Below are positions 8,444 through 42,085 of a stretch of 64,000 bases of DNA, piece by piece. The stretch lies in assembly GCA_966211945.1 (NCBI GenBank), contig CBIHOS010000005.1, positions 13,665-77,664 of the forward strand, in the 5' to 3' direction. This stretch comes from an uncultured bacterium. Its GTDB lineage: Bacteria > Acidobacteriota > Vicinamibacteria > Vicinamibacterales > Vicinamibacteraceae. Each line of letters begins with the position of its first letter. Position 1 is the first letter of the stretch. A program made the position numbers and the translations under genes. The notes under the pieces are model-generated. The model did no database searches. It saw only the letters and a program-made list of their open reading frames with translations, and was not told where the DNA came from.

Positions 8444-8529
8444 CGCCGCATGGTACCCGGCGTTGCCTCCGTTCGGACGCATCTGGCCGGACGTTCACCG
8501 TACAGGACCCACCTCTCCCGGAGTCGAAT

Positions 8530-10352: not shown

Positions 10353-10428
10353 TGCGAGCCACGCCGCAATGGACGGGGAAACACGTCACGGCCGGCGGCG
10401 CTGGACGTCGGTCGTCACGGCGGGGCAA

Positions 10429-10989: not shown

Positions 10990-11019
10990 CGCTTGCCTCA
11001 ATTCACAAATTCTCCGCGT

Positions 11020-11460: not shown

Positions 11461-11472
11461 GGTCGTCCGTTG

Positions 11473-11556
11473 GTAGGGCGCGTTCCCCGGCTTGTCCGCC
11501 GGAGCCTCGACGAAGGTGCGACGCGCCTGTCAGGCGCCTCGGGGAGGCGCCCCTAC
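11473..11556. repeat. GTAG-family REP doublet (REPIN-like) enclosing a second dispersed repeat
   Basis: GTAGGGCGCG at 11473; inverted GGCGCCTCGGGGAGGCGCCCCTAC ending at 11556; internal 11491-11516 resembles the reverse complement of 17467-17493. Confidence 0.7.
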
Positions 11557-11558
11557 CT

Positions 11559-12776: not shown

Positions 12777-12790
12777 TCGCACCAGGCCAA

Positions 12791-12908
12791 CGGGCTAAGG
12801 GGCTTCAGGCTACGGGCTACCTGTGGCAACGCAGCCTGTGTAAGCAGCCTGCAGCCCGAAGTCTGCAGCCTGCGCGTCGAACAGGGCGCCTCAGAGAGGC
12901 GCCCCTAC
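12791..12908. repeat. Inverted degenerate heptamer array plus a GTAG REP hairpin
   Basis: GGCT(A/T) units facing (A)GCCTGC units at 12791-12872; GGCGCCTCAGAGAGGCGCCCCTAC ending at 12908. Confidence 0.6.
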
Positions 12909-26859: not shown

Positions 26860-28611
26860 ATGGCCAAGCGTCCGACCGCCAACACCACTCGCCGCGGCGC
26901 CGCGCCGAGAGCGGCAGCCACAACCGCGGCACCGACCTACGCAGCCACCTGTCACGCGCTACTGGTGTACGCGGCGCCGGCCGAACGCGACGACACGCGC
27001 GCGCTCGCCATTGCTGAGGTGGCCGTGCGCGATGCGATCGGCGATGGCTATTCGGTCCAACCGCTCGGTCCTGGCGCTCGTGATTTCCGCGTGACACCAG
27101 CGGGCGGCGGCGGCATCGCTCCGGGACGGGCGTGGACGCTGACGCGGAGCCTGAAGGCGCATCGCGACATCGCCGACGCCGAACCGGCGATGGAACAGCC
27201 GGGCCTCGAACCGCCTCCTGGTGTCGTCGAGGACCGCCCTGCTGCTGCCCCGCGCGACTTCAAGCCCGATGTGCCGCTGCCGTGCGCGGCCAGCAACCAC
27301 GAGTGGAGCCTCGACCTGTGCCGGGTCAAGCAGGCCTGGGCGCTGACACCGCCGACGCCGGCCGGTCGTACGCACGGCGCGGGCATCGTCGTCGGCCATC
27401 CCGACACCGGTTACACGCGGCACGCCGAGCTCTTCGACGCCCCGCCCCGCGTGCGTGTGCACGACAGCTACGACTTCGTCCTGCGCCAGCCCGATGCGGC
27501 CGATCCGCTGGAGCGCGGCAACCCCGGCCACGGCACGACCACCGCCAGCGTGATCATGAGCGGGGCCGGCGGGCCGGCGACGCCGTTCGTCTCGGGGGTG
27601 GCGCCGGCCGCGGAGCTGATCCCGATTCGCGTGACACCGCGCGTCGTGCTCCTCGGCTTCGATCGACTCGCGGAAGCGATTCGTTACGCGACCGACAAGG
27701 GCTGCCACGTCATTTCGATGAGCCTCGGCGGCGTCACGCCGTCGGGCACGCTCGAGCGCGCCGTCGAGTACGCCGTCGGCCGCGGCGTCGTGGTGCTGGC
27801 CGCGGCCGGCAACGTCTGGCCGTGGGTCGTGTACCCAGCCCGCCTCGATCACGTGATTGCCTGCGCGGCCTGCAACTGCCAGCGCCAGATCTGGGATCGC
27901 TCGGCGAGCGGCGACACCGTGGACGTGACCGCGCCCGGCGAAACCGTGTGGGTGGCGCGTCCCGGCGCTACGGCCAGCCCCGCCGACGATGTGGTGGCGT
28001 CCGGATCGGGCACGTCGTATGCGGTGGCCACGACGGCCGGTGCGTGCGCGCTGTGGCTGGCATTCCACGGCCACGACGCGCTCGCCGCGCGCTACGGTGC
28101 CGGCCAGATCGCCGCCGTCTTCAAGGAAGTGCTGATGACGCACGGCGTCGACACCCCGTCGGGCTGGCGTGCCGACCGGCACGGCGCCGGCATCCTCGAC
28201 GCCGAGAAGCTGCTGCAGGCACCGCTGCCGGCCACGCCGCCGGCAAGCGGCCTCCGCATGCGTGCCGCGGCGACTTCGCGCCCCTTGAACGACGTCGACC
28301 GCTTCCTGCCGTACTACCCGGGCGTCGATCCGGCGCGGGTGCGGCGCGGCCTCGTGCGGGTGCTCGACACCGCGGATACCGATCTGCCCGGTGTGCTCGC
28401 CGAGTACGGCGACGAGCTGCTGTTCCACGTGGCCACCAACCCGCAGGTCCGGGCGCGCGTGCTGAAGGGAGACGGCCCGAAGAAGCGGGGGCAGCTGCTG
28501 CCGTCCCGCACGGCCCGCACGGCCCGCACGGCCCGCGCCACCGCGCCCGCCGCCGCCGGCCGCCTGGCCCGCGAGGGCTCGCGTGCCCTGCTCGTCCGCA
28601 TCGGAGCCTGA
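26860..28611 (+). CDS. Cytoplasmic S8 subtilisin-like serine peptidase
   Basis: Catalytic motifs GHPDTG (D), GHGTTT (H), AAAGN (oxyanion N), GTSYA (S); no signal peptide. Confidence 0.9.
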   Translation: MAKRPTANTTRRGAAPRAAATTAAPTYAATCHALLVYAAPAERDDTRALAIAEVAVRDAIGDGYSVQPLGPGARDFRVTPAGGGGIAPGRAWTLTRSLKAHRDIADAEPAMEQPGLEPPPGVVEDRPAAAPRDFKPDVPLPCAASNHEWSLDLCRVKQAWALTPPTPAGRTHGAGIVVGHPDTGYTRHAELFDAPPRVRVHDSYDFVLRQPDAADPLERGNPGHGTTTASVIMSGAGGPATPFVSGVAPAAELIPIRVTPRVVLLGFDRLAEAIRYATDKGCHVISMSLGGVTPSGTLERAVEYAVGRGVVVLAAAGNVWPWVVYPARLDHVIACAACNCQRQIWDRSASGDTVDVTAPGETVWVARPGATASPADDVVASGSGTSYAVATTAGACALWLAFHGHDALAARYGAGQIAAVFKEVLMTHGVDTPSGWRADRHGAGILDAEKLLQAPLPATPPASGLRMRAAATSRPLNDVDRFLPYYPGVDPARVRRGLVRVLDTADTDLPGVLAEYGDELLFHVATNPQVRARVLKGDGPKKRGQLLPSRTARTARTARATAPAAAGRLAREGSRALLVRIGA

Positions 28612-28619
28612 GGCCGCAT

Positions 28620-29960
28620 GTGCCCGGCATCTGGGAGACCGACGCGGAGTGGCGCCGCCTGCGGCGTGAACTCGCCACCTGGCGAGACCATCGCCGGCAG
28701 CGCGATGCCGACGGCCAGCACCGTTCGCAGCTGGAGGGGTGTGCCGCGGTGATCGACGCCGCCCTGCAGGAGCTGCACGGGCCGATCGCCGCGATGACCG
28801 ATGCCGACCCGCGGGCCGCCGCGCATTGCCGCGTGCACGACCGCCGGCTTGCGTGGCTGCGCCGCACCTGGGACTTCTTCCGCGACCGCTTCGACCAGCG
28901 TGACGACGACGAGCTCGCGCCGCTGCTGCGCGCCGCCGACGAGATCGCCTGGAGCTGTCATCGCGAGGCGTTCGGCGCGCCGCTGGCGTCGCGGTCTGCG
29001 ACTGTCGATCCACCGCCGCTGCCGTACGTCGAGCCGCAGCTGACGCCCGAGGTCTTTCCGCGCGGGCTCGTCCCGGGTGCGCTGCGGCGCGACGTCGACG
29101 CGGTCTTCCTGCGAACCGCGCTGGAGTCGCTGCCGTTCGCGGTCGTGCGCGTGCCGGCGTCCTGCGTCACCGCGCCCTGGTGGCTCGTCCACCTCGGTCA
29201 CGAGGTCGGTCACGTCGTCGACGACCAGATCCTCGGCCATGGCGCCCGCACGGCGATCGTCGAGGAACTCGGGCTCGGCGATCCCGCCACCGAGGAATGG
29301 ACGCGATGGAGCGGCGAGCTCTTCGCGGATCTCTACGCCGTGCTCATGTTCGGTCCGTGGGCGCTGTGGGCACTCGCGACGGCCGAAGCGCGAGACGCCG
29401 ACGCCATGCGCGCGCCGCGCGACGCCTATCCGCCGCCCGTCGTCCGCCTGCTCGTGATGGCTCGCGCCTGCGACGCACTCGGCCACGGCGCCGGCCCGGT
29501 CGACGACGCGGTGCCTGCCTGGCGGGCCTTGGTCGACGGCGATCCGCAGCAGGCCGCGCGAGTGCGCGACGGCGGCCGCCTGGTCGACGCGCTGTTGTCG
29601 TCGCCGGCCGGCGCGCGCGCGTGGCAGGCGCGGACCGCGCACGAGCCGGCGCGCTGGACGCCGGCGTCCCTGCAGACGTGGGTGACGCGGATGCCGACCC
29701 GCCCCGCCGTGGCGCCCGGCAAGCCGCGGCGGCGCTGGGCCCGCGAAGTGATGGCCGCAGGCGTGCTGCGCCGTCGCGCCGCCGACGGCACCCAACCCGG
29801 CGCGTTCGACGGCGCCGCGCTCGCCAGCGATCTGCTGGCGTGGCTGCCTGCCGTGCGAGAAGCGGGCGCGCGATCCACGACGGCCGAACCGACCGTACGC
29901 ACCGCGGCCCGTGGCGCCGCGCTCGCGCAGACCTTGATGGCGGCGGAGCCGCTCACATGA
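28620..29960 (+). CDS. HExxH zincin-like putative metallopeptidase
   Basis: LGHEVGHVV, downstream ELFADLYA (candidate third ligand Glu) and YPPPVVRL; GTG start with GAGG RBS. Confidence 0.6.
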   Translation: MPGIWETDAEWRRLRRELATWRDHRRQRDADGQHRSQLEGCAAVIDAALQELHGPIAAMTDADPRAAAHCRVHDRRLAWLRRTWDFFRDRFDQRDDDELAPLLRAADEIAWSCHREAFGAPLASRSATVDPPPLPYVEPQLTPEVFPRGLVPGALRRDVDAVFLRTALESLPFAVVRVPASCVTAPWWLVHLGHEVGHVVDDQILGHGARTAIVEELGLGDPATEEWTRWSGELFADLYAVLMFGPWALWALATAEARDADAMRAPRDAYPPPVVRLLVMARACDALGHGAGPVDDAVPAWRALVDGDPQQAARVRDGGRLVDALLSSPAGARAWQARTAHEPARWTPASLQTWVTRMPTRPAVAPGKPRRRWAREVMAAGVLRRRAADGTQPGAFDGAALASDLLAWLPAVREAGARSTTAEPTVRTAARGAALAQTLMAAEPLT

Positions 29961-32263
29961 CTCCAGTCAGGTTCACGATCGCGCTGCAGTCCAAACCGGG
30001 AAGCGGTTGGGCCGCCGAGGTCCGCGACGCGCACGGGGTGACGATCGACGGATCGGTACGCACGCTCTCGCCTGTGCCCCTGCCCGATCCCGACGACGAG
30101 TTGCTGACGTTTCCGGCCTGCGCGCTGCCGCTGCCCGGCGGCACGCCGGACGCCCAGGCGCTCGAGGCGCTCGACGCCGCCAGTCTCGGTGCGTGGTACG
30201 CCAACATGGCGTCGGGACAGGCGTCCGACGGTATGCCGCGGACGTTCGGCCGGTATCTCTTCGAGCTCGTGCTCGGCACGCAGGTCTGGGCGGCGATCAC
30301 CGCGCGGGCGGCGGCCGCGCCGATCGATCTGCGAGTCGCGTGCGACCCCGCCGACTGGGCGCTGATGCGCCTGCCCTGGGAGTTGATGCACGATGGCCAG
30401 TACTTCCTGGCCGCGCGTCCCGGCCCGCTCGTGCTCATGAGCCGCGAGATCGTCGCGCCTGGTGCGCCGGCATCGCCGCGCCGCTTCGCGCCGCGCGTGC
30501 TGTTCGTCATCGGCTCGCTGGTGGGCGACACCGAGATCCGCGCCGGCGCCGAGTACCTCGGCCTGCTGCGCCGCCTGCAGGCGCTCGATCTGACCCTCGA
30601 CTGCCGCGTGCTGCGCGAGGCCACCGCGGAACGCCTGCAGGCGGCCATCGCCGACTTCCAGCCCTCGGTCGTCCACTTCATCTGCCATGGCGGCTTCCTG
30701 GAGGGTCGAGGATCGCTGCGGCTGTTGCCGTCCGACCAGGCGTTGCCGTTCCAGGACTACACGGCGCCGCAGTTGCTGAACCTCCTCGCCACCACCGACG
30801 CGGCCGGCACCGTCACGTTCCCGGCCGTCGTCGTCCTCAACGCCTGCTACAGCGCCACGCCTCCTGCGCCGGGCGTCACCGATCCGCTCGACCGGCTGGC
30901 GACGTCGGAGGTGCTCGGCAACGGATCGGGTGCGCTGCCTGTCGGACGCGGCGCGGTGCCGCTGGGCGCCGAACTTGTGGCTGGCGACGGGGCGCACGGC
31001 GGCCCGGCGCTCGTGATCGGCATGGGCGGACAGGTCGCCGACCTGGCCTGCCGGCTCTTCACGCGTCAGTTCTATCAGTCGCTGCTGCGCGGCGATCCGA
31101 CGTGGTCGGCTGCGGCCGGCCGCCGCGGCGCGTTCACCCACGGCTTCGACCCGCGCGACACGATCGACTGGGCGACGCCGGTCGTCTTCGTCGAGTCGCA
31201 GGCCGCCCTCGTCGTCGACCCGCAGGAACTCGATCTCGCCCGGCGGCGCGCCATCGTCGCGCACCAACTGCGCAGCCAGGACGATCCGGCGGCGTTCTGC
31301 GGCCGCCTGACCTACTTCGACGACTGGCGCGAGATCACGCACGCGCCGCGCGGTTCGTCGCGGCGGCTGCTCGGCATCTCGATCAGCGACACCGATCCGG
31401 AGAAGCGCGTCGGCGGGTCGCGCCTGCTCGAGGAGCTGGCGGTCGCCGCCATCCACGCCGGGCACGTGCCGTGCCTGCGCGTCCATCGCGAGGCGTCACC
31501 GGAGCGGCCGTCGGACATCTCCGGCATCGCCCGCGAGATCCTCGCCGTGGCCCTCGACGTGCGCGTCAAGTACGGCCTGCTGCCGCACGACTGGGCGCCG
31601 GAGGTCATCGACCTTCATCTGCACCTGCGCGGCACGGCGGTCGACCTGCCGCTGCCGGTCGCGCGGGCGCTCGCCATCAGCGAGGCCGACGCCTTCCGCA
31701 CCGCGTTGCAGCGCGACCTCTGGCGCATTCGCGACGAGGTCGCCGCCCACGTCACGGCGCCGGTTGGGATCCAGGGGCGTCCGCTTGTCGTGGTGCTGCT
31801 CGACGAAGTGCAGCGCTATGCCGGCGCGGCGGGCCGCTTCGTCGCCGATCTGCTGCGCGCGGGCGGGCTTGGCACCGAGCAGGATCCGATTCCGGTCGCC
31901 TTCACGTACCGGAAGGACCTGAACTACGCCGAGCCGTACGAGCAGGTGCGCAAGGCGCTCGACGCCGTCTCCAACTGGGCGATTCGCCACGAGCTGCACC
32001 CTCTGCGCGAAGCCGCCACTGACCGCTCTATCTATTTGCACCTCCTGCTCCAGCGGACGCCGCCGCTCGTACCCGCGGCCAACCTGCCCTCCGGTCAACT
32101 GGACGGCTGGCTGGGCATCATCCACAACGCGACAGACAGGGGTTACCCGTCGCAGCTGAAGAGCACCGCCCCGGCTCTGAAGATTGCCCTCATGGCCTGT
32201 CAACTCGCCAACGTCATCGTCGAGGCCGACGACGAGCGTGTGCTCGCCGGGCTGGGGAAGTGA
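29957..32263 (+). CDS. CHAT (caspase-like) protease fused to a degenerate STAND-like NTPase
   Basis: LMRLPWELM, VHFICHGG (His), VVLNACYS (Cys), FTRQFYQSLLRG; C-terminal VGGSRLLEELA (Walker A lacking Lys) and VVLLDEVQ. ATGA overlap with the upstream gene. Confidence 0.8.
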   Translation: MTPVRFTIALQSKPGSGWAAEVRDAHGVTIDGSVRTLSPVPLPDPDDELLTFPACALPLPGGTPDAQALEALDAASLGAWYANMASGQASDGMPRTFGRYLFELVLGTQVWAAITARAAAAPIDLRVACDPADWALMRLPWELMHDGQYFLAARPGPLVLMSREIVAPGAPASPRRFAPRVLFVIGSLVGDTEIRAGAEYLGLLRRLQALDLTLDCRVLREATAERLQAAIADFQPSVVHFICHGGFLEGRGSLRLLPSDQALPFQDYTAPQLLNLLATTDAAGTVTFPAVVVLNACYSATPPAPGVTDPLDRLATSEVLGNGSGALPVGRGAVPLGAELVAGDGAHGGPALVIGMGGQVADLACRLFTRQFYQSLLRGDPTWSAAAGRRGAFTHGFDPRDTIDWATPVVFVESQAALVVDPQELDLARRRAIVAHQLRSQDDPAAFCGRLTYFDDWREITHAPRGSSRRLLGISISDTDPEKRVGGSRLLEELAVAAIHAGHVPCLRVHREASPERPSDISGIAREILAVALDVRVKYGLLPHDWAPEVIDLHLHLRGTAVDLPLPVARALAISEADAFRTALQRDLWRIRDEVAAHVTAPVGIQGRPLVVVLLDEVQRYAGAAGRFVADLLRAGGLGTEQDPIPVAFTYRKDLNYAEPYEQVRKALDAVSNWAIRHELHPLREAATDRSIYLHLLLQRTPPLVPAANLPSGQLDGWLGIIHNATDRGYPSQLKSTAPALKIALMACQLANVIVEADDERVLAGLGK

Positions 32264-32267
32264 GCGC

Positions 32268-35200
32268 ATGAGGCCCGAGACGACGTTCACGCCACAGCAC
32301 GCCGCCGACCTGCTGGCCCAGGCCCGGGCCGAACTTGAACTCGAGTCGCTTGCGCGCCTGCCCACCGTCACGCTGCCGGAGACCGCGCGCTGGCTGTGCC
32401 TGGTGCCGGCATGGACGCCGGCACTCGCGGTCCGATGCGGTCTGCCGGGGTGGTCGGACGGCGCCGAGGTGGCCGTGCTCGATGCCTGGCGCGACGAAGG
32501 ACTGGTCGAGACCACGCTGACGGCGCTGGCGATCGACGATCTCGGGCAGTTCATTCCGGCGCAGCGCCTGTTCTGGATGCCCCGCGACGCCCGCCTCGCG
32601 TGGCTGTCACGCGTCCTCGCCGAGGACGGCAGCGAGCGGCTCGTGGCGCTGATGCGCAGCATCGCCCGGCGCGTCTCAACGCAGCCGCGCGATCAGCACC
32701 TGCCCCAGGCCACCTGGCGGTGGGCGACGCTGGCCGCGGTCGAACCGGGCGCGTCGCCGACGCTGGCTGCCGTGTTCGAGGCGGCGATCGACGAGGCGCT
32801 GGCAGGCAGCCGGCAGGACGATGCCTGGTTGTGGATCGAGGCGATGCAGCGCGTGGCCGACGTGACGCCCGGCGAGGCGACGACGCTGCACCAGCGTGCG
32901 GTGCGGCGGCTGGCTCTATTCGATCGACAGCGGAACGACCGCGCCTCCCTGCGGCACTATCTCGCGCGTCCGGAGCAGTTCGACGCGTGGCGCGCGCTGC
33001 TGACCGGGCCGCACGATCGATGGGCGCTGCACTACCTGGGTGGCGGCGGCGTCGGCAAGACGATGCTCATGCGGGCGCTGACGTCAGGCACCGCCGAGCA
33101 CTTTCCACCCGGCTTCGATGCACCGCCGACAGTCACGGCCCGCATCGACTTCGATCACATAAATCCGGACTATCCGGCGCGACGCCCCGGCCTGCTCTTC
33201 GCGCACCTGGCCGAGGAACTGCGGCTCAAGGACGAGACCGGGCGCGCCGCGGAGGCGTTCGCGCTGCTGTTCAGCAGGATCGCGCTGCTGCACGAAAGTC
33301 CGTCTGGCCGCTCCATCGAGCGGACCACCGTCGATCGGCCGGACGGGGGCGCGGTCGAGGACGTGCTGGACGTGTTCGTGCTGGCCTGTGAAGCGGTGGC
33401 GGCGCCGCGCGCGGCGCGCGTCGTCCTCATGCTCGACACCTGCGAGGAGCTGGCCCGCCTCGGCCCCGACGGACGGCTGCCCGAGAGCGTCGAGCGGACC
33501 TTCGAGTTGCTCGAGGCCCTGCACATGCGCATGCCTGAGCTGCGCGTCGTGCTGTGCGGCCGCCGTCCGCTCGCCGGCACGTACGCCGATGGCGACGTGG
33601 TGAGCCCGGTACTGCCACCCAGGCCCTGGATGCGCCTGCACCGGATGTTCGCGTTCTCTGAAGCGGAAGCCAACACCTACCTGTCGCGATCGGGCGTGCC
33701 CGAGCCGCTGGTTGCGCCGATCCTGGCGCGCAGCGGCGCCGCCGCCTCGTCGGCCTCGCTCGGGCTGCCGGCATCGGACGGCACCCGCCGGTACAGCCCG
33801 TTCAGCCTGTCGGTCTATGCCACGTGGGTGTCGCAGCGCGATGCCAGCGTCGACCCCGATGCGATTCTCAACGACCCGGTCGATCACTTCGTGCGCATCC
33901 GGATCCTCGACCGCATCCACAACGCCGACGTGCGGCGGGTGCTGCCGCACGTCGCCCTGCTGGGCCGCTTCGACGAAGCGACGCTGCGGCGCGCGGTCGA
34001 TCTCCACAGCGAGACCGCCGACGCGATCATCCGCGAGGTCGTCGCCCAGGAGTGGATCGACCGGCAGGCCGGCGGCTTCTGCGAGGTCGAGCCTGAACTC
34101 CGGGTGCGGCTGCTGCGCCACCTCGAGCAGGCGTCGCCCCAGGAAGTGCAGGCGGCCCGCCGTCGCGTGCTGCCGGTCCTGTGGGAGTCGCTGGACGCCG
34201 CGCCGCCGTTCGACGTGCCCGACGAACCGATCGTCCAATCGCTCGTCCAGGCGCTGTTGTCCGATCCCGGCGGCCTGCTCACCGCCTGGCGCATCGTCGA
34301 CGCACGGGTCGTGCGCGGCAGCCATGCCGCCTGGGGCGTGAGGGTGCTCGGCCGGCTGCTCGCCGACGATGCGGCGCTGGCCGCGCCGGCGATCGAGGCC
34401 GGCACGTGGGGCGCGTTCGTGACGACGTACGCCGAGTGTGCGCTGCACGAACAAGGCGCCGCGGCCACCGAGGACCTGTGGCGCCGCGCCTGGGACGGCG
34501 TCCAGCAACTGGCCGACGCCGAGGAGCGCGCGTCGGTCCTCGTGCGCGTGGCGAGCGGCGGTCTCGCGCAGGCGGTGGCGGCGGTGGACAACGGCATCGC
34601 CGTCGATCTGTGGGTGCTGCGGCTCTACAACCTGCTGTCGGATCGACACGTGCGCGTGACCGCCCCGTCGCATCTCGCGCCGGCGATCGCGGCGCTGATG
34701 GCGTGCGCCGACGCGGTCGACGCGCAGGCGGATCCGCTGGCCCCGGCGCCGCCGATGCTCGAGCGGATGGCGTCGCTGGCCGCCGAAGTCGTGCACGCTC
34801 CGGCGCGTGCGATGGCGTTGATCTGCGAAGGGCGCTTCGCTCGCCGCCGGCAGGACGCCGCGCTGGCCAGCAAGCGCTTCGTCGACGCGTTGCAGACGAT
34901 GACGGGCAGCGAGGAGCGCGAGCTGATTGCGTGCCTGCAGTGGCCGGCCTGTCTCCGTGCCGAGAGGGTGACTGGTGGACGCGCATCGGATCGGCTCGAT
35001 CCCACGGCATGGGTCACCCTCGAGGCGATGCGCGGCCTTGCGGGCCTGGAACCGATCGACGCGACGCTCGCGCGGTTCGACGGACTGCCGCCGGTCCAGG
35101 GCGCGATCTCCGCGGGCCGCCTGCAGGCGCTGAGACTCTCGCTGGCGGCCGCCATTCGCGTGCCCGACAGGTCCGATGTGACGGATCGGCCGACGCAGGC

Positions 35201-37733
35201 CCTGCCGTCGGGGGCGCAGCAGGAAGTCGCGCTGGCGTTGACGACGGCGCACCGTGCCATCCTTCCCGCCGCCGCCGTCTCGGCTCTCGAGATCATCGAG
35301 CTGGGACGGCCCGACCTCGGGTTCCGCTGGCTCGCCGAACTGACGTCGATCGCCACGAGCGCGCGCAACACCGCGGTTGCCGCGGCGATTCGCCGGGCCG
35401 AGTCCGAGGCGGCGACGCGGCTGCGCCTCGGTGATCTGCCGCCCTATGCGAGGCAGCTCGCCGCGCATGCCGAGGCGCTACCGCATCAGGATCGCGAGCG
35501 GGTCCGCGCTTTCCTGCCGCCCAACGCGTTGCCGCCGACTTCCGACGAGGCAGCCCGCACGCGGGGCGCCTGTCACGCGATGTGGCGGGCCCGAGCGGCG
35601 CTCGACGACACCGAACGGGCCGCACTGGCGGAGTGGGGCCGCCGCGTCATTCTGGCGGCCCCTGAGGACGACAGCGAGTTCGCCTCGGCCTCGGTCGCGC
35701 TCGACCTCGTGGAGTGCAGCGACCTGGGCGTCGACGCCGAAGTGGCCACGCACCTGACGCCGACCTCGCCCGAGGACTGGTGGCACCGGCACCCGGCCGC
35801 GCCGGAGCTGGCCCTGCGCGTCTGGATTCGGAGCGCCGCCCTGGGCGTGTCGCCGGGAGGCCCGACCACGGAGCTCGTGAGACGTGTTGGCGTCCGCCGC
35901 GCCGCGGCCATCGCGTCGGAGGAGGGTGAGCTGCTGGCGCTGCGGCTGCCGGGCCAGGCCTTGCGCCTGCTCGCGCTCGCCCTGACCTGGTACGAGGATG
36001 CGCACGACGCGCTCGGCATCTGGCAGGTCTCGGCGCTGCTGTCGCTGACCCGCGTGAGGGCGGGAGTCCCGCGCGAGAGCATCGATCTCGGCGCCCTCCA
36101 GGCCGCCCACGACACCGTCTTCGCGCTCCAGCAGGCGAGCGCCGGTCCTCTGGGCCTGCTGCCGTGGACTGCGCTGGCGACCGGCGCTGCGCCGCTGGCG
36201 GTGCCGCCGGCCGGGGCCGAATGGGTGCCCTGGCTGCATCGTGTGATGGCGTTACAGCAATGGGTCGTCGGTGGCGTGCGTCCCGAGGTGGTCTTCGGCG
36301 CGGGCGCGCAGCTGCCGATCGAACTGCGCGGCTGGCCCGGCGGACGCGGCGACGCGATGACGACGACCCAGTCGGGGATCACGGCGGCAGCGGCGCCGCC
36401 GGCTGCGGCACCGGCGAGCGTACCGGCCGCGATGCCGCCCGCCCCGGTGGGCGCGCCCGGGGGATCCGTGCCGCCCTCGGCCGGCCACCCCACCGTGCCC
36501 GGCCCGGCGCGCTCGCCGGCCAGAGCCGGTTCCGCGATGCGCGCCGGCGCGCTCGTCGCCGGTGCCGTGGTCACCGCCGCGCTGGCGTTGGGGGGCGCTC
36601 CTTCCTGGGCATTCGGACTGGCCATCGCGCTGCTGCTCGGCCTGCTCGCGTGGACGGTGATTTGGCTGCGCGACGATCCCGACGCCACCGTTGCGCCGCC
36701 GATCGTGTGGACGGCGCGCGTCGTGGAGGCCGGCGGCAGCAGTGCCGCCGCCCGCATCGCCGCGCTGGATCTGTCGGTGTCGATCCACGACGACCGCGGC
36801 AACGCGATCACGACCGTCCCGATGCGGGTCAGACGCACCGATGCCTTCGCCGGACTCGATGCGCTGCGGCAGCCACCGGCCGGCACGGCCCTGTCGGCCC
36901 CGCTGCCGCGCACGCCCGCGCTGAAGCGGACCTGGCTCGAAGTCGCGGTGGCCAACGCCTGGCCCTGCTGGGAGGCGCTTCTGTGGTCCGGCCTGCTCGA
37001 TCGAGACCGGCTGTACCCGTCGGTCGTGCGGCGCGTGCCGGCGGCGCGCGCGGCCAGGCCCCTGGAACCGGCGACGGGAGGCGTGTGGAGCGTCGCGACC
37101 GTGTCCGCCTCGTCGAGCGACGAGCGCCAGGCGCTGTACGCGTGGGAACCCGCGACCCGCGCCGGGCACGTGCGGACGCGCCCGATCGCTGCCGAGGCGG
37201 TGCGCGCCGGCATGCCCGAGGACGGCGTCCAGGTCGCGCACGTCATCGCGCTGCCGGTCGACACGCCGCAGGGGCTGTTCTTCGAGGTGTCGAGCGGCGA
37301 CGCGGCCCAGTACAAGGAGACGCTCGAGTCACTTGCGGTCGATCGCGGCACGCTCTTCGACGCGTCACGGATCACGCACGCGTTCCCAGACGTGGCGTGC
37401 GTGCTGATCCAGCCGCCGAGGCGCCCGTCGCTCGACCTGACGCCGGCCGCCCGCGAAACGTGCGCGCAGCTGCGGGTGATTGGCGCGGCCCTCGCCGAGC
37501 ACGGCGTGTCGCTCGTCGTCGTGCTGCCGCCGCTCGACGGAGAGCTCGGCGCCGACCTCGTGCGGCTGCTGGGGCGACGTCTGGCGGGCCTGCGCGCCGG
37601 CCGCACCATCGATCCGCACGAGTTCGTCACGCGCGCCCGCGAGATCACGATGGCGCACGCGCAACGTGTGCTGCCGCGCGATGCCGCCATCGAGCTGGCG
37701 CTGCAGATCGCCGTGTACGCGGCGCGGGCATGA
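32268..37733 (+). CDS. Large STAND (AAA_16/NACHT-like) NTPase with helical repeats, a two-helix membrane hairpin and a C-terminal pseudo-CHAT domain
   Basis: Walker A GGGGVGKT (33039-33062), Walker B LMLDTCEE, VVLCGR; hydrophobic hairpin ~36546-36669; degenerate CHAT-like tail. Confidence 0.75.
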   Translation: MRPETTFTPQHAADLLAQARAELELESLARLPTVTLPETARWLCLVPAWTPALAVRCGLPGWSDGAEVAVLDAWRDEGLVETTLTALAIDDLGQFIPAQRLFWMPRDARLAWLSRVLAEDGSERLVALMRSIARRVSTQPRDQHLPQATWRWATLAAVEPGASPTLAAVFEAAIDEALAGSRQDDAWLWIEAMQRVADVTPGEATTLHQRAVRRLALFDRQRNDRASLRHYLARPEQFDAWRALLTGPHDRWALHYLGGGGVGKTMLMRALTSGTAEHFPPGFDAPPTVTARIDFDHINPDYPARRPGLLFAHLAEELRLKDETGRAAEAFALLFSRIALLHESPSGRSIERTTVDRPDGGAVEDVLDVFVLACEAVAAPRAARVVLMLDTCEELARLGPDGRLPESVERTFELLEALHMRMPELRVVLCGRRPLAGTYADGDVVSPVLPPRPWMRLHRMFAFSEAEANTYLSRSGVPEPLVAPILARSGAAASSASLGLPASDGTRRYSPFSLSVYATWVSQRDASVDPDAILNDPVDHFVRIRILDRIHNADVRRVLPHVALLGRFDEATLRRAVDLHSETADAIIREVVAQEWIDRQAGGFCEVEPELRVRLLRHLEQASPQEVQAARRRVLPVLWESLDAAPPFDVPDEPIVQSLVQALLSDPGGLLTAWRIVDARVVRGSHAAWGVRVLGRLLADDAALAAPAIEAGTWGAFVTTYAECALHEQGAAATEDLWRRAWDGVQQLADAEERASVLVRVASGGLAQAVAAVDNGIAVDLWVLRLYNLLSDRHVRVTAPSHLAPAIAALMACADAVDAQADPLAPAPPMLERMASLAAEVVHAPARAMALICEGRFARRRQDAALASKRFVDALQTMTGSEERELIACLQWPACLRAERVTGGRASDRLDPTAWVTLEAMRGLAGLEPIDATLARFDGLPPVQGAISAGRLQALRLSLAAAIRVPDRSDVTDRPTQALPSGAQQEVALALTTAHRAILPAAAVSALEIIELGRPDLGFRWLAELTSIATSARNTAVAAAIRRAESEAATRLRLGDLPPYARQLAAHAEALPHQDRERVRAFLPPNALPPTSDEAARTRGACHAMWRARAALDDTERAALAEWGRRVILAAPEDDSEFASASVALDLVECSDLGVDAEVATHLTPTSPEDWWHRHPAAPELALRVWIRSAALGVSPGGPTTELVRRVGVRRAAAIASEEGELLALRLPGQALRLLALALTWYEDAHDALGIWQVSALLSLTRVRAGVPRESIDLGALQAAHDTVFALQQASAGPLGLLPWTALATGAAPLAVPPAGAEWVPWLHRVMALQQWVVGGVRPEVVFGAGAQLPIELRGWPGGRGDAMTTTQSGITAAAAPPAAAPASVPAAMPPAPVGAPGGSVPPSAGHPTVPGPARSPARAGSAMRAGALVAGAVVTAALALGGAPSWAFGLAIALLLGLLAWTVIWLRDDPDATVAPPIVWTARVVEAGGSSAAARIAALDLSVSIHDDRGNAITTVPMRVRRTDAFAGLDALRQPPAGTALSAPLPRTPALKRTWLEVAVANAWPCWEALLWSGLLDRDRLYPSVVRRVPAARAARPLEPATGGVWSVATVSASSSDERQALYAWEPATRAGHVRTRPIAAEAVRAGMPEDGVQVAHVIALPVDTPQGLFFEVSSGDAAQYKETLESLAVDRGTLFDASRITHAFPDVACVLIQPPRRPSLDLTPAARETCAQLRVIGAALAEHGVSLVVVLPPLDGELGADLVRLLGRRLAGLRAGRTIDPHEFVTRAREITMAHAQRVLPRDAAIELALQIAVYAARA

Positions 37734-37743
37734 GGAGGATCCG

Positions 37744-38808
37744 GTGCCGCTGCTCGACACCCTGAAGGACTGGTGGGCTCACGACGCGTCGGGGGCCGTC
37801 GTCCACGACCTTGCCGCGGCCGCCGTCACGCCGTCCGGCGACACCGGCGCGGCGTGCACGGCCGGCCTGCACTACTTCCGCCTGTGGCTCGCCGAGATGC
37901 GCGTAGCTCGCGACAAGGAGTGGTTCGCGACGCGCCATCCGGCGGTGCACGCCCTCGTCCGCCTGCGCTTCGGCGACGTCATGGTGGAACTGCCGACGAT
38001 CGCCGGCCCGATGTCGCTGCCCGGACTCGATGAGGCGCACCTCGGCGACGTCGTGCAGCTCGACTACCCGCTGACGCCCCTGCTTCCCTACAACGGCGGC
38101 ATCGTCGAAGTCGCGGCCGGACTGGTGGCGCTCGAGGGCGGCCGCGTGCTCGGCGAGTTCATCGGCGCGATCGAGACCGTGACGTCCGTGCTCGCGCAGC
38201 CGCCGCTGTCGACGGCACTCGCGGCGGTCGGCCCCGTGACGAGCGCCGTGCAGACGCTGTTCGGCGCGGGCAAGGGGCGTCAGCACCTGGGCCTGCACGT
38301 GGCGTATGCCGGCGCCGGCGCGCCACAGGCGCTGCACGCCGGCTACCTTGCGGTCGTGCGGCGGGCGGCCGCGCCGATCGACGCTGCAGCGCTGCGCGTC
38401 GAGACGGGCCGTCTTCGGCTGCGCGGAGAGCCGCTCGACGGCGCGGACTCGATGCTGTTCAGAATCGAACGGATGACCGAGCGCGATGACTGGGACAGTC
38501 TCGCGACCATCGCGCGTCCGTTCAGGGACGCGCTCACCGCGCTGGCGCACCGCGACGAGACGATGGCCGAGGCGCTGGTGCGGCGGGCCGTGCTCGAGGC
38601 GTACTCGTCTCCCGACTTGACCCGCGCCGATCGGCCGCGCGTGTGCGCGGAGATCAAGCGCACCTACCAGGACGCGCGCGACGCCGGGCTCGGTCTCGAG
38701 CGGAGTGCGACGTCGCTGTCGCAGGCGATGGCCGCGGCGCTGCCGGCCGCGACGCTGGCGCGGCAGGCGCCGCCGACCCTGTCGTCCTTGCTGGACCTGA
38801 CCACGTGA
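37744..38808 (+). CDS. Hypothetical protein in the protease operon (candidate effector or substrate)
   Basis: GAGGAGG RBS + GTG; beta-rich N-half, amphipathic/hydrophobic central helices, helical tail; no family recognised. Confidence 0.65.
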   Translation: MPLLDTLKDWWAHDASGAVVHDLAAAAVTPSGDTGAACTAGLHYFRLWLAEMRVARDKEWFATRHPAVHALVRLRFGDVMVELPTIAGPMSLPGLDEAHLGDVVQLDYPLTPLLPYNGGIVEVAAGLVALEGGRVLGEFIGAIETVTSVLAQPPLSTALAAVGPVTSAVQTLFGAGKGRQHLGLHVAYAGAGAPQALHAGYLAVVRRAAAPIDAAALRVETGRLRLRGEPLDGADSMLFRIERMTERDDWDSLATIARPFRDALTALAHRDETMAEALVRRAVLEAYSSPDLTRADRPRVCAEIKRTYQDARDAGLGLERSATSLSQAMAAALPAATLARQAPPTLSSLLDLTT

Positions 38809-38820
38809 GCGGAGAGTGAC

Positions 38821-39624
38821 ATGGCCAAGAAAGCCCTGTGTGTCGGCATCAACGACTACCCGTACGACGGGTCCGATCTCAATGGATGCGTCAACGACGC
38901 GAACGCATGGGCCGCCGTGCTGAAGGAGCTCTACGGCTTTGCGGACGTCGCGCTGCTGCTGGATGCCGAGGCCACCCGCGTCCGGATGCTCGACGGCCTG
39001 AAGACGCTGCTGGCCGGCGCCGCCGCCGGCGACGTGCTCGTCTTCACCAACTCCTCGCACGGCTCGTACAAGGCCGACACCGACGGCGACGAGGAGAAGT
39101 ACGACGAGATCCTCTGCCCGTACGACATCGCCGACAACGACATCGCCGACGATGACCTCAGGCAGCTGTTCGCGAACCTGCCGGCCGGCGTCCACCTGAC
39201 GGTGGTCCTCGACAACTGCCATTCGGGCACCGCGACGCGCGCTTCCGTTTCCGACATCATTCCCGGGCTGCGGACGCCGGACGACCGGCGCGTGCGGTTC
39301 CTCAGCCCGGCGCTGCGCGGCGGCAAGGTGCTCGAGAACCCGTGGGCGGCCAAGCCGAAGCGGCAGATCGCGCATCCCGAGTCCGCGATGAAGGAGGTGC
39401 TGCTCTCCGGCTGCACCGACAAGCAGTACTCCTACGACGCCAGCATCGAGGGCACCTACCACGGGGCGATGACCTTCTACGCGATCAAGGCGATTCGCGA
39501 ATCGCCCGGGCTGCTCACGTACAATCGCCTGCACAAGCGCATCGCGAGTCTGATCGAGGACTATCCGCAGAATCCGCAGCTGGAGGGCAGCAGCGCCAAC
39601 AAGCGGCGGAAGCTGTTCACCTGA
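38821..39624 (+). CDS. Peptidase C14 metacaspase/orthocaspase
   Basis: KKALCVGINDY, LNGCVNDA, SSHGS (His), LDNCHSG (Cys), GAMTFY, QNPQLEG. Confidence 0.93.
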   Translation: MAKKALCVGINDYPYDGSDLNGCVNDANAWAAVLKELYGFADVALLLDAEATRVRMLDGLKTLLAGAAAGDVLVFTNSSHGSYKADTDGDEEKYDEILCPYDIADNDIADDDLRQLFANLPAGVHLTVVLDNCHSGTATRASVSDIIPGLRTPDDRRVRFLSPALRGGKVLENPWAAKPKRQIAHPESAMKEVLLSGCTDKQYSYDASIEGTYHGAMTFYAIKAIRESPGLLTYNRLHKRIASLIEDYPQNPQLEGSSANKRRKLFT

Positions 39625-39638
39625 GGACACGGTCGCCC

Positions 39639-41300
39639 GTGTACACGCTGGACGGTCGCCAGAAGAAGGCCCTGCACGCGGCGCTGCTCGCGGCATTCCC
39701 GCGCCACGCGTCGCTCGAGCAGCTGGTCCTGTTCCACCTCGACACGCATCTCGCGGTCGTGGCGGGCGAAGGACCGCTGACCGACGTCGTCTTCCGCCTG
39801 ATGGACTGGGCCGAGGCGCAGGGCCGCCTGGATGCGCTCGTCAACGGCGCGCGCGACGAGAACCCGGAGAACCCGCAGCTCATCGCCTTCGAGCGGCTGG
39901 TGCTGGAGGCCCGCGACACACGCCCGCAGGATTCGGCGCTGCGGCAGTTCGCCGAGCGTGTGCAGCTGGCGCCGGTGATGCCTGCCGATCCGGATCTCGA
40001 GAAGCGCGTCTTCCGGGCGGGCTTTTCGGACATCGCGCAGTGGCGGGCCCGGCTCGGTCAGGCGGAGCTGGCCGTGTGCCGCATCGAGGCGCCGGCGTGG
40101 CGCGCCCTCGGCACCGGCTTTCTGGTCGGGCCCGATCTGGTCGTGACCAACCGGCATGTCGTGGACGCGCTCGCGTCCGATCCGGCGCCGCCGCTGGTGG
40201 CGCGCTTCGACTTCAAGGTCTCGCCCGACGGCACGCGGCTCCGCGAGGGCCGGACCTTCGGCCTGGCCCGCGACTGGCTCGTGGCGAGCAGCCCGGTTGC
40301 CGAGCTCGACTTCGCAGTGGTGCGGCTCGACGCCCGTGCCGGCGACCTCGCTCCGGGTGGAACGTCGGGCGCGCCGCCGCGCGGCTGGATCACGCCGGCC
40401 TGGCGCGACCTCGAAGCCGACGAGACGCTGTTCGTGATCCAGCACCCGCAGGGGGACGCGCTGAAGCTGGCGGCCGGGCGCTTCGATCGGCGCGAGCCGA
40501 CTAGGCTGCGCTACCGCGTGGACACCGAGCCCGGTTCGTCGGGATCGCCGTGCTTCACCGCGCAGCTCGAGCTCGTCGCCCTGCACCGCGGCGCCGCCGA
40601 GGGGGCTGCCAACCAGGGCGTGCCGTTCGACGCCATCGTCGCGGCCCTGCCGGATGCCGTGCGCGCGTCGATGCAGCCGTTCGTGGTCACCGTGCCGGCG
40701 ACCGACAGCGCGCCCGACACGGACGCGCCGGCCCGTGCCGGTGTGGAGCGCCTGCCCAACGCGCCGCTCACGCCGGCGGCATCGACGGCGGCGCGGCGCC
40801 GGCCGGTTGTCGTTGCCGCGGCGATGCTGGTGGTGGCGCTCACGGGTGCCGTGGCGTGGTGGCGCCCGTGGACGGCGGCAGGCGGCACGCGATCGCCCAC
40901 GCCGCCGCCGATCGCGGTGCGGGAGATCTCGGTGCCCTTCGAATGGGCGCGCGTGGCGGACACTCGCGGTTCGTGCGAGTCGGCTGGAGGTGTGACGCGG
41001 GCGCTCTACCGCGGGCAGTCGCAGGGCGCCTGGCCGGCCACCAGGGGACAGCGGGCCCGCGAGTTGCTGCTCGTTGCCTACCAGACGGTGGCCATCGAGC
41101 AGGTGACCGCGTCGATGGCCGGCAACAGCGAGGCGCTGAGCGTCCTGGGCGGCACGGCCAACCGCGACGTTGCGCGCAAGCTGCAGTTCCCGGCCGCCGT
41201 CACCGCGCCGGTCGTCGTCGTCGCCTGCGTCCGGACGCCGCTGCCCGCGCCCGAGGCGCCGCCGTTCCGTGTGTCGACCTGGAGGGAGGTCACGCCATGA
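39639..41300 (+). CDS. EAD1 - trypsin-like (S1) serine peptidase - transmembrane helix - extracytoplasmic domain
   Basis: N-terminal LHAALLAAFP...LEQLV...VVFRLMDWAEAQGRLDALVNGARDENPENPQL (EAD1-like); TNRHVV (H), LDFAVV (D), PGSSGSP (S); TM ~40806-40860. Confidence 0.8.
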   Translation: MYTLDGRQKKALHAALLAAFPRHASLEQLVLFHLDTHLAVVAGEGPLTDVVFRLMDWAEAQGRLDALVNGARDENPENPQLIAFERLVLEARDTRPQDSALRQFAERVQLAPVMPADPDLEKRVFRAGFSDIAQWRARLGQAELAVCRIEAPAWRALGTGFLVGPDLVVTNRHVVDALASDPAPPLVARFDFKVSPDGTRLREGRTFGLARDWLVASSPVAELDFAVVRLDARAGDLAPGGTSGAPPRGWITPAWRDLEADETLFVIQHPQGDALKLAAGRFDRREPTRLRYRVDTEPGSSGSPCFTAQLELVALHRGAAEGAANQGVPFDAIVAALPDAVRASMQPFVVTVPATDSAPDTDAPARAGVERLPNAPLTPAASTAARRRPVVVAAAMLVVALTGAVAWWRPWTAAGGTRSPTPPPIAVREISVPFEWARVADTRGSCESAGGVTRALYRGQSQGAWPATRGQRARELLLVAYQTVAIEQVTASMAGNSEALSVLGGTANRDVARKLQFPAAVTAPVVVVACVRTPLPAPEAPPFRVSTWREVTP

Positions 41301-42085
41301 GACCGCTTCGCCTGGTGTCGCTCGCCATACCGTTCGCGCTGCTGCTGGCGTGCCGCGATGAACCGCCCGCACCGCCGCCGGCCGCGCCCGAGGCGACCGC
41401 GGTGCTGTTCGGCCGCGTCCTCGGCTCCGATCACACGGCGGCCGTGCCTGCCGACTGGCAGGCGCGGGTGACGGCGGAGTACGAGGACGGCACCAGCGTG
41501 GCGCCGCGCGATCGCGACAGCAATGGCGACCTGTTCGCGTTCAAGGTGGTGCCAGGCAAGCGGGTGCGCCTCTACTTCGAGGCGGTGCCGTACCAGGCGG
41601 CGGTCAGCGAGGCGTTCGACGTGACGTCAGAGCGCAGTTACGCGTTTCGCGTCCCCGACATCGTGATGGACCGCATCCGCTGGACGATGGCGTTGTTTGC
41701 CAAGGGCAACGGCGAAGCGTTCGGCCGGAATCTGGAAGCGCAGGCGGCCGTGGCCGAGAAGACGGGCTCGGCGGACATCTTCCGCGCCAACCTGGAGTTC
41801 CTCCGGAAGGCCTCTGCGCGGTTCCCGGACTGCATGCGCAAGCTCGAGGCGTTCGAGCGCACGCCGCGCGGCGTCGCCTTGACCCGCCAGGCCGAGGCGC
41901 GCGGAGTGCCGGTGTCGCTGCTGCAGACGCTTGTCGCATCGCCAGCCCGCGCGGCGCAGGAGGAGCCGGAGGCACTGCGCACGCTGGCCGCCAATCCGCG
42001 ACTGGCGCGGTCGCTCCGCAACGAGGCGACCCGCGCGCTTGCTGCCGTACCCACGTTGCCCTCGCCCACACGCCCGAACAGGTAG
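41297..42085 (+). CDS. Putative lipoprotein, last gene of the protease operon
   Basis: MRPLRLVSLAIPFALLLA-C lipobox-like signal; ATGA overlap with the upstream gene. Confidence 0.7.
   Translation: MRPLRLVSLAIPFALLLACRDEPPAPPPAAPEATAVLFGRVLGSDHTAAVPADWQARVTAEYEDGTSVAPRDRDSNGDLFAFKVVPGKRVRLYFEAVPYQAAVSEAFDVTSERSYAFRVPDIVMDRIRWTMALFAKGNGEAFGRNLEAQAAVAEKTGSADIFRANLEFLRKASARFPDCMRKLEAFERTPRGVALTRQAEARGVPVSLLQTLVASPARAAQEEPEALRTLAANPRLARSLRNEATRALAAVPTLPSPTRPNR

Follow-up and report, generated by a model that had tools for sequence, protein, structure and literature searches.

The operon studied here sets a non-enzymatic protein among genes for several proteases, and raises the question of what that protein does. 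Its gene, gene E (37744..38808, + strand; 354 aa, stop codon included in the coordinates), lies in a window of 64,000 nucleotides of Vicinamibacteraceae DNA. An earlier note on this DNA had proposed that the product takes the position held by gasdermins in protease loci and may be a protease-activated protein that forms pores or disrupts membranes.

Gene E is a real ORF. It runs from a GTG start at 37744 to a TGA stop that ends at 38808, with a GC3 of 0.90 in its frame. The ribosome-binding site AGGAGGA (37733..37739, + strand), read directly from the sequence, stands immediately past the stop of gene D and 4 nt ahead of the GTG, in agreement with the strong site described in the earlier note. 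The start call is correct, because homologues begin with the identical MPLLDTLKDWW. Neither a signal peptide nor a transmembrane (TM) segment was predicted for E, and the only other non-enzymatic gene, H, has a lipoprotein-like leader; the description of E as the only cytoplasmic non-enzymatic gene of the operon therefore holds as far as prediction goes.

By sequence, E belongs to a large, so far unnamed protein family. Close homologues number 60, and a profile search yielded relatives amounting to 1,639 representative clusters at 50% identity. These range across bacteria and archaea of several phyla, from Methanosarcina to Frankia, with a distribution that favours Actinomycetota, Acidobacteriota, Chloroflexota and Methanosarcina; culturable carriers include Microbispora hainanensis DSM 45428, Lentzea, Amycolatopsis and Frankia. 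Searches of E against Pfam, NCBIfam and PADLOC returned zero matches even at E=10, as did the family profile against PDB chain sequences (E<=10), and searches of the Aravind-lab conflict-system paper and of the 2026 STAND survey turned up no account of the family.

The genes around E, all on the + strand, begin with gene A (26860..28611), a mycosin-like subtilase of class S8 with intact D/H/S motifs. The next three form a cassette with E: gene B (28620..29960), unannotated, with an invariant gluzincin-like HExxH...E motif; gene C (29957..32263), a CHAT protease in which His (HFICHGG) and Cys (LNACYS) are present; and gene D (32268..37733), a P-loop NTPase of 1,821 aa. Behind E follow gene F (38821..39624), a caspase (Peptidase_C14) whose SHG/DNCHSG dyad is intact, and two clade-specific add-ons, gene G (39639..41300; EAD1, a trypsin-like protease and one TM helix) and gene H (41297..42085; a lipoprotein-like exported protein with no family match). 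The placement of E between a presumed STAND gene and a metacaspase gene, as first described, is true of this operon and specific to the Luteitalea clade: gene F is confined to close Luteitalea/Vicinamibacteraceae relatives, and distant cassettes end in gene E with no caspase behind. Programmed readthrough from E into F was considered and rejected; the two genes lie in one frame in this operon, separated by TGA plus 4 codons, but two relatives (L007 and L009) have another spacing and another frame, so the shared frame is a coincidence. The neighbours of the operon within the window are housekeeping and metabolic genes, with no defence island, and a promoter/terminator scan of the operon was uninformative.

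Gene D carries a Walker A motif (GGGGVGKT, nt 33039–33062) and a Walker B motif (VVLMLDTCEE, nt 33420–33449), both invariant, as is a GRR motif, followed by a TM hairpin (nt 36534–36650) and a C-terminal CHAT-like domain (nt 36675–37730) without catalytic His and Cys. The model of this last domain is of low confidence (pLDDT 58), and the CHAT-like assignment is therefore based on Foldseek and motif alignment; such a pseudo-CHAT domain on the NTPase hints at caspase-like recruitment by heterodimerization. Gene D had no Pfam match, STAND models included, and its profile gave only generic P-loop/AAA+ matches in the PDB, such as midasin and ORC5, so that its designation as a STAND NTPase is no more than plausible. 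PDB sequence searches with genes B and D returned nothing beyond P-loop matches.

The AlphaFold2 model of E (pLDDT 78, pTM 0.79) bears out the layout read from the sequence in the earlier note, which was a β-rich N-terminal half, an amphipathic pair and a helical C-terminal block. An N-terminal helix (residues 3–17; 37750..37794, +) with conserved L3, L7, W10 and F/W11 leads into the first half of a β-sandwich (strands within residues 18–131; 37795..38136, +), which contains invariant Y44 and R46 and an LTPLLPYNGGxVE motif. A helical hairpin with a Pro-Pro turn (residues 134–175, as helices 134–149 and 155–175; 38143..38268, +), supported by both the model and the alignment of relatives, separates this from the second half of the modelled sandwich (strands within residues 179–244; 38278..38475, +). 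An ERDDW motif (residues 246–250; 38479..38493, +), in which R247, D248 and D249 are conserved in 95%, 90% and 93%, respectively, precedes a block of three helices (residues 254–313; 38503..38682, +) seen in model and alignment, and this block carries SPDLTRADRPRV (residues 289–300; nt 38608–38643).

The peptide highlighted in the earlier note as amphipathic corresponds to residues 137–174, that is, to the hairpin. In amphipathicity, each of its two helices ranks above 98% of shuffles; the pattern recurs across 199 relatives, and P153 is kept in 87% of relatives. No other part of the protein is as hydrophobic as the hairpin, which was modelled with low confidence (pLDDT 56–65), and 30–56% of the residues on its polar face are charged. 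A transmembrane hairpin was rejected, given that no 19-residue window of E reaches TM-grade hydrophobicity; in the relatives, the median maximum KD19 is 1.41 and only 4 of 177 reach 1.8. A β-hairpin insert of the MACPF/CDC type was rejected as well: it is the helical moment that reaches significance, and the moment at 170 degrees is low. The hairpin resembles an unremarkable pair of helices lying against a sheet, ordinary in its amphipathicity and partly charged, and not a hydrophobic membrane hairpin.

The fold itself is, in the model, a β-sandwich with weak C2-like resemblance, a hairpin insert and a three-helix block. Foldseek returned zero PDB matches at E<=0.001; the top matches were all C2 domains, but weak (E 0.014–0.3; probability up to 0.91, TM 0.3–0.52 on the C2 side), and the best 50 of 608 weak matches, mostly C2 domains, included neither a pore-forming toxin nor a gasdermin. 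The structural check on the pore-forming proposal thus gave weak C2-like similarity and no pore former among the matches listed. C2 domains are membrane-binding modules, and those of phospholipase C, PI3K and extended synaptotagmin are the best, though weak, structural matches of the N-terminal sandwich, but E has no Pfam C2 match and contains a helical insert of 42 residues as well as a helix bundle, both absent from C2 domains. The protein also has a conserved Asp cluster.

Beyond a core that spans residues 1 to about 317, E continues in a flexible linker of highly variable sequence and ends in a short tail that is conserved. The linker (residues 314–324; 38683..38715, +) is rich in indels, has the highest column entropy and falls below pLDDT 50 at residues 317–322, and it is a candidate protease-accessible site. 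The tail (residues 325–354; 38716..38805, +), marked by L325, M329 and PPTLxxLLxL, is found in 119 of 153 complete relatives, and others carry unrelated sequence or a protease domain instead. This border is also a sharp, family-wide breakpoint of homology, which in 19/153 relatives stops at profile positions 318–327 and gives way to 22–666 unrelated residues, while the N terminus is unencumbered in nearly all family members. No family-wide cleavage motif or P1 residue was found in the linkers of the 153 complete relatives. A conserved basic site was rejected, R/K occurring in 71 of 153, just as often as chance predicts, and linker motifs are specific to clades (TRG in Methanosarcinales; DRS/AL in actinomycetes).

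In bacteria and archaea alike, the E family nearly always adjoins or is fused to a protease, a link far stronger than could be seen from this operon when its protease association was first pointed out. Pairs, fusions and cassettes with a protease occur at more than 60 loci, and the partners span five protease classes (CHAT, C14, C25-like, S8 and trypsin) as well as HExxH proteins, across phyla. A conserved gene order—the HExxH metallopeptidase-like B, CHAT, a membrane-anchored P-loop NTPase with pseudo-CHAT, and E last—is present at 27 of 42 genome loci (Acidobacteriota, Actinomycetota and Chloroflexota) and in about 22 of 25 metagenome cassettes, counting contigs that extend past D. Minimal pairs comprise CHAT and E in Methanosarcinales, E with a TPR-S–trypsin, E with a C25-like protease, and B with E. 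Fusions place the E domain N-terminal to CHAT, C25-like, S8 (subtilase) or C14 (caspase) domains; all three fusion sequences that were read (P0082, P0084 and P0181) have the catalytic motifs, and the S8 domain of P0084 is homologous to gene A. E is the N-terminal module in essentially all relatives, and its domain was found solely in the E gene when all ORFs of 126 loci were searched with phmmer and HMMs. Such a breadth of partners is more readily explained if E is a substrate common to all of them than if it is an adaptor or inhibitor dedicated to one class. E is also the best-conserved cassette protein per residue (E-values against lengths), which is what one would expect if it acted as an effector and not as a sensor. 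In the three B–C–D cassettes that lack E (L079/L080 and L103), no effector replacing it was found, and the only + strand ORFs past D looked spurious.

These genomic features recall several known systems. The bacterial gasdermin (bGSDM) operons (PMC10312443, PMC10153256) likewise combine a non-enzymatic protein with an NLR-like ATPase and with proteases, one or several, whose class varies, the operon of Lysobacter consisting of four genes, two of them proteases. The active part of bGSDM is N-terminal, as predicted for E, and the C-terminal piece is dispensable or variable, but there is no similarity in sequence or fold, E being a predicted β-sandwich with helical hairpin and helix bundle and without the N-terminal Cys. 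The Pepco/Trypco1/2 and EACC1 modules are treated by Evans et al. (bioRxiv 2025.11.14.688446 = PMC12642450); in that survey, the protease partners Pepco and EACC1, both small and non-enzymatic, were shown to form pores once activated by cleavage. They resemble E as non-enzymatic partners of serine or cysteine proteases that are prevalent in actinomycetes and other multicellular prokaryotes, but E has three times their size and shows no homology to either by Pfam. The ten families surveyed there do not include E, which is set apart by name and size, and a cassette of HExxH protein, CHAT and TM-NTPase–pseudo-CHAT goes unmentioned in the text consulted. Recurrent pairing of protease and partner is shared as well with the trypsin–MBL nuclease and α/β-hydrolase zymogens, which are inert until cut and attached to varied immune sensors (PMC12799240; PMC12642450); those effectors have recognizable enzyme folds, whereas E has none. 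EAD and CARD-like adaptors (PMC7159879; PMC10312443) also stand as N-terminal non-catalytic modules ahead of protease domains, but they are small and helical, with matching copies on NTPase and effector, whereas E exceeds 320 residues, is β-rich, has no copy on D or other proteins and has no Pfam EAD match.

In its genomics, E bears the mark of effectors already known to be licensed by proteases (gasdermin, Pepco, EACC1 and MBL nuclease), which supports the effector logic of the earlier note: pairing, fusion, N-terminal module and breakpoint all match the genomics of gasdermin, Pepco and EACC1. As the likeliest role, to which we give about an even chance, E would be a latent effector that is licensed by proteolysis through the release of its N-terminal core, with action on the membrane as our best guess. 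A trigger would be sensed by the membrane-anchored NTPase D, whose C-terminal pseudo-CHAT domain would then switch on protease C, the CHAT enzyme; the additional S8, caspase and trypsin enzymes of this clade may be activated as well. A protease would cut E within the 314–324 linker, and the freed core would then act, perhaps on the membrane through sandwich and hairpin. A bolder version strikes us as possible but rather doubtful: that E is a new, eleventh and structurally distinct class of protease-gated death effector, in which a sandwich/hairpin/helix-bundle core of ~320 residues would be freed from its tail or from its own fused protease to attack the membrane, as part of a previously undescribed four-gene immune cassette, with B as a Zn-peptidase and the pseudo-CHAT domain of D serving recruitment, that extends from Methanosarcina to Frankia, and with a giant-virus structural relative over its whole length.

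A regulatory or adaptor role is a serious rival, if on our estimate an unlikely one. E would in that case bind the protease or the pseudo-CHAT domain of D and inhibit or activate it, might sense membrane state or Ca2+ through the C2-like sandwich, and would leave killing to the proteases or to TIR or metallophosphoesterase (MPE) proteins. The N-terminal place of E in fusions, the usual seat of sensor and adaptor domains, its position directly behind D in most cassettes and its weak C2-like fold matches are consistent with this, and the conserved cluster of Y44, R46, R247, D248, D249 and D296 looks like a binding surface or domain latch. At two minimal loci (L011 and L013), the pair of E and TPR-S–trypsin is followed by a separate TIR or MPE effector gene, which implies that E need not be the killer; the proteases themselves could also be the effectors. 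A single adaptor or inhibitor for five unrelated protease folds would be unusual, however, and no E-like domain occurs on D or the proteases, which argues against a homotypic adaptor of EAD or CARD type. E is, moreover, the slowest-evolving cassette protein, unlike typical sensors, and the breakpoint and variable appendix past residue 318 would be left unexplained. The same protease linkage would be expected if E were a zymogen or signalling substrate that a protease activates for some function other than one on membranes, as are MBL nuclease, α/β-hydrolase, Csx30 and CalpT; cleavage-activated enzymes provide precedent (PMC12642450, PMC12799240), and the ERDDW and DLTxxDRxR motifs hold many conserved charged residues. 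We regard this as improbable, given that no enzyme family or fold matched, that histidines are just 72–75% conserved with no invariant Ser, Cys or Lys, and that a β-sandwich with added helices does not correspond here to a known catalytic scaffold.

Still smaller is the probability that we assign to a housekeeping or developmental proteolysis cassette of morphologically complex soil prokaryotes, with E as substrate or chaperone. The metabolic surroundings of the operon in the window and the favoured lineages (Actinomycetota, Acidobacteriota, Chloroflexota and Methanosarcina) are compatible with it, but an NTPase switch, several proteases, patchy shuffled order and fusions are typical of conflict systems (PMC7159879, PMC12642450). 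The EAD1 on gene G and the TPR-S sensor domains on partner trypsins also speak against it, and one relative of E (L004) lies amid PIN, PycTM, HicB and AbiE genes in a clear defence island. There is hardly any probability left for E as a divergent gasdermin or a homologue of Pepco/Trypco, EACC1 or CATASP, a reading favoured solely by operon logic and the C-terminal tail. As the earlier note correctly stated, E has no gasdermin sequence signature: Pfam, PADLOC and NCBIfam gave no match at E=10 and the PDB no sequence match. The predicted sandwich is unlike the gasdermin sheet, no gasdermin was among the best 50 of 608 Foldseek matches and the N-terminal cysteine is absent, so that gasdermin identity is as good as refuted by sequence and by predicted fold. 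Pepco, EACC1, CATASP and EAD identities were rejected for lack of a Pfam match and for wrong size, E with its 354 aa being far above Pepco (117 aa) or the two EACC1 cleavage fragments (5.7 and 7.1 kDa) as given in the survey (PMC12642450).

Licensing of effectors by proteases is gaining recognition as a principal strategy of prokaryotic immunity, paralleling caspase–gasdermin signalling, and the survey counts ten families of such effectors (PMC12642450). By its association with proteases, E is a promising candidate for a new cell-killing protein triggered by a protease, one that is not a gasdermin, and the existence of culturable carriers makes the effector hypothesis directly testable. If E is a pore former or membrane toxin, it would represent a new fold for regulated cell death; if it is a regulator, it would represent a new protease control module.

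Gene E (37744–38808) encodes a protein of 354 residues and starts at a GTG codon 4 nt downstream of an AGGAGGA motif that lies directly 3′ of the stop codon of the upstream gene. Its third-position GC content of 0.90 (window GC, approximately 70%) identifies this as the coding frame, and homologues share the start MPLLDTLKDWW, bearing out the open reading frame and strong ribosome-binding site of the earlier note. E occupies the fifth place in a compact operon on one strand (26860–42085; intergenic distances of 4–14 nt, or 4-nt overlaps) that encodes, in order, a subtilase (A, S8), a 446-aa protein with an HEVGH motif (B, 28620–29960), a CHAT protease (C), a 1,821-aa P-loop NTPase (D), E, a caspase (F, C14), a protein with an EAD1 domain, a trypsin domain and one transmembrane helix (G, 39639–41300) and a lipoprotein-like protein (H). 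Between 26860 and 41300 the operon encodes five proteases, each of a different catalytic type (S8 subtilase, HExxH protein, CHAT, caspase C14 and trypsin). The catalytic motifs are intact in all five of these recognisable proteases; from sequence, this points to either a proteolytic cascade or multiple outputs run in parallel. E and F share one frame, with only a TGA and four codons between them (38806–38823), and a natural E–caspase fusion is known (P0181); readthrough from E into F is unlikely because spacing and frame are not kept in the relatives L007 and L009. The EAD1 domain of G is carried on a trypsin protease, and no second copy was detected on the other operon proteins; EADs have been described as operating in matched pairs (PMC7159879; PMC10312443).

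With the cutoff relaxed to an E value of 10, E still matched no model of Pfam, NCBIfam or PADLOC, and its family profile matched no PDB chain. The 60 close homologues are all annotated as 'hypothetical', the closest named ones belonging to Luteitalea (Acidobacteriota), and searching 1.84 billion representatives with a profile returned 1,639 clusters of relatives at E values ≤ 0.001 (467 at ≤ 1e-30). Across 199 family sequences Y44 is 100% conserved; the other best-conserved positions are R46, L54, P66, P115, G118, G119, L127, L182, G200, L224, L238, R247, D248, D249, A263, L292 and D296, giving the motifs LTPLLPYNGGxVE, RxERDDW and SPDLTRADRxRV.

An AlphaFold2 model built with 31 homologues as input (pLDDT 78, pTM 0.79) comprises an N-terminal helix (residues 3–17), beta strands (18–131 and 179–244) with an inserted helical hairpin (134–149 and 155–175), three helices (254–313), a low-confidence linker (317–322; pLDDT below 50) and a short C-terminal tail. 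This predicted architecture agrees with the beta-rich N-terminal half, amphipathic pair and helical C-terminal block read earlier from the sequence, the quoted amphipathic peptide corresponding to residues 137–174. The amphipathicity of both hairpin helices exceeds that of approximately 98% of shuffles, and the hairpin is the most hydrophobic segment of E; with 30–56% charged residues at polar positions it is an ordinary amphipathic pair that does not reach transmembrane-grade hydrophobicity family-wide, and neither a transmembrane segment nor a signal peptide was predicted in E. Foldseek searches of the PDB gave no match at E values ≤ 0.001. The best matches were mostly C2 domains or C2-containing proteins, including all single-domain ones (phospholipase C, PI3K and extended synaptotagmin; E values of 0.014–0.3, TM-scores ≤ 0.52 on the C2 side). 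Among viral models, one uncharacterised Hokovirus protein matched over the whole length (E value 1e-6, TM-score 0.41–0.44, 332 columns); this giant-virus protein (Hokovirus HKV1; BFVD entry A0A1V0SF49, 323 aa) has only 8% identity to E.

The placement of E between STAND and metacaspase genes holds here, but among the relatives only close Luteitalea/Vicinamibacteraceae ones (L005 and L007–L009) have F, G and H after E; the conserved unit is the cassette B–C(CHAT)–D–E rather than a position next to a caspase. The cassette, usually with E as its terminal gene, was intact in 27 of 42 loci in a scan of species-representative genomes, from Acidobacteriota, many Actinomycetota (Amycolatopsis, Lentzea, Microbispora, Nonomuraea, Pseudonocardia and Frankia) and Chloroflexota. 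A separate, independent scan that started from the B profile added 80 loci, and E follows D in approximately 22 of the 25 on contigs extending at least 1.2 kb past D. A distant cassette (L004, 13891–21053) lies in a defence island, beside PIN, PycTM, HicB-like, DpnII–MboI and AbiEi/AbiEii genes. B itself matched nothing in Pfam or the PDB and represents an unannotated, gluzincin-like family in which HExGH and a downstream Glu are invariant; a metagenome scan found 164 relatives.

In D, the Walker A and B motifs are invariant, which sustains a P-loop NTPase; the STAND label given earlier is only plausible, because no Pfam STAND model matched and a PDB profile search returned generic P-loop matches only. 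A transmembrane hairpin is predicted at residues 1423–1461 (36534–36650), between the long N-terminal part and the C-terminal domain. Six of the eight D homologues checked have one or two transmembrane helices at a comparable position, so the system is probably membrane-anchored. The C-terminal approximately 350 residues (36675–37730), in a low-confidence model (pLDDT 58), found their best PDB matches by Foldseek in TPR-CHAT, SAVED-CHAT and separase. Aligned C-termini of 12 D proteins share the CHAT-like strand motifs LHhhGxPVxT and hLQAxP and lack the catalytic His-Gly and Cys. On these matches and motifs, the C-terminus of D seems to be a pseudo-CHAT domain, a CHAT/caspase fold without the catalytic His and Cys, which could recruit the true CHAT protease.

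Proteases also accompany E outside the cassette. A CHAT protein of 700–722 aa lies directly upstream in L010 and L015 (Methanosarcinales), a C25-like peptidase directly downstream in L017, and a TPR-S–trypsin protein adjoins E in L011 and L013. An eCIS_core (DUF4157) HExxH protein stands upstream, in place of B, in L012, and B alone is the immediate protease-like neighbour in L064 and L118. In L012 (Methanosarcina), the gene just 3′ of E (11143–11631) encodes a chagasin-family (I42) cysteine-peptidase inhibitor, after which comes a gene for a thermolysin-like M4 peptidase. On the L064 contig, where no CHAT was detected, two NB-ARC-like STAND NTPases with N-terminal transmembrane helices and TPR-like C-termini lie downstream of B–E (7708–12803); the two NTPases, replacing CHAT and D, look like an alternative set of sensors for the same B–E pair. 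In the long family members E forms the N-terminal part of a fusion and a protease the C-terminal part: CHAT (P0082, P0095 and P0156), C25-like (P0107, P0121 and P0145), S8 resembling gene A (P0084) and C14 (P0181), with catalytic residues present in all three read (P0082, P0084 and P0181). In essentially every relative the E domain lies at the N-terminus. The canonical tail is present in 119 of 153 N-complete representatives, and in 19 homology ends at profile positions 318–327, the lowest-confidence, most variable and indel-rich stretch of E, followed by 22–666 unrelated residues.

Partnership of a conserved non-enzymatic protein with proteases of many unrelated classes is typical of the protease-licensed effectors already known, and the constant N-terminal place and the swappable C-terminal appendix after a floppy linker are further marks of one. 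Precedent comes from Pepco and EACC1, small non-enzymatic protease partners that Evans et al. (PMC12642450) showed to be cleavage-activated pore formers; transmembrane STAND ATPases are among the sensors to which their proteases are coupled. Given protease partners of many classes, the N-terminal place, the appendix and this precedent, we rate as best, at about an even chance, the reading that E is a latent effector that cleavage of the linker at 314–324 would license. The fusions and the breakpoint also favour it, and the interpretation given in the earlier note is thereby supported in part. Against it stand the ordinary amphipathic character of the hairpin, the absence of any known pore former from the best 50 of 608 weak Foldseek matches, and a linker in which no P1 residue is kept across the family: R/K occurs in 71 of 153, just as often as chance predicts, and the only motifs seen are clade-specific. 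For an effector, our leading guess at the target is the membrane, based on the C2-like sandwich, the conserved interfacial-type Tyr/Trp/Arg/Asp and the hydrophobicity of the hairpin.

The main competitor, possible although clearly less favoured, is that E is a regulatory or adaptor subunit. The third gene after the E and TPR-S–trypsin pair encodes a TIR protein (DVFISYRW, fibronectin-like tail) in L011 (4912–7420) and a calcineurin-like metallophosphoesterase in L013 (11069–14069); these could be the true effectors, with E the constant regulatory component. Serving five protease folds would be unusual for one adaptor, however, and D and the proteases carry no second copy of the E domain. It is unlikely that E is a zymogen or signalling substrate acting away from membranes, and somewhat less likely still that the cassette has a role outside defence: housekeeping genes flank the operon in the window, but the L004 relative sits among PIN, PycTM, HicB and AbiE genes. 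True gasdermin homology, at what had been taken for a gasdermin-like position, is very improbable; the absence of a gasdermin signature noted from sequence was confirmed in Pfam, NCBIfam, PADLOC and the PDB, and none appeared among the 50 Foldseek matches listed.

Protease-gated effectors are already known as a concept. In the databases and literature searched, the E family, its fold and the cassette of four genes, whose membrane NTPase bears the pseudo-CHAT domain, seem not to have been described, and E is absent from the ten families surveyed by Evans et al. (PMC12642450). In a plausible model of the system, D would sense a trigger and, through its pseudo-CHAT domain, would recruit or activate the CHAT protease C, and three more proteases would have been added in the Luteitalea clade.
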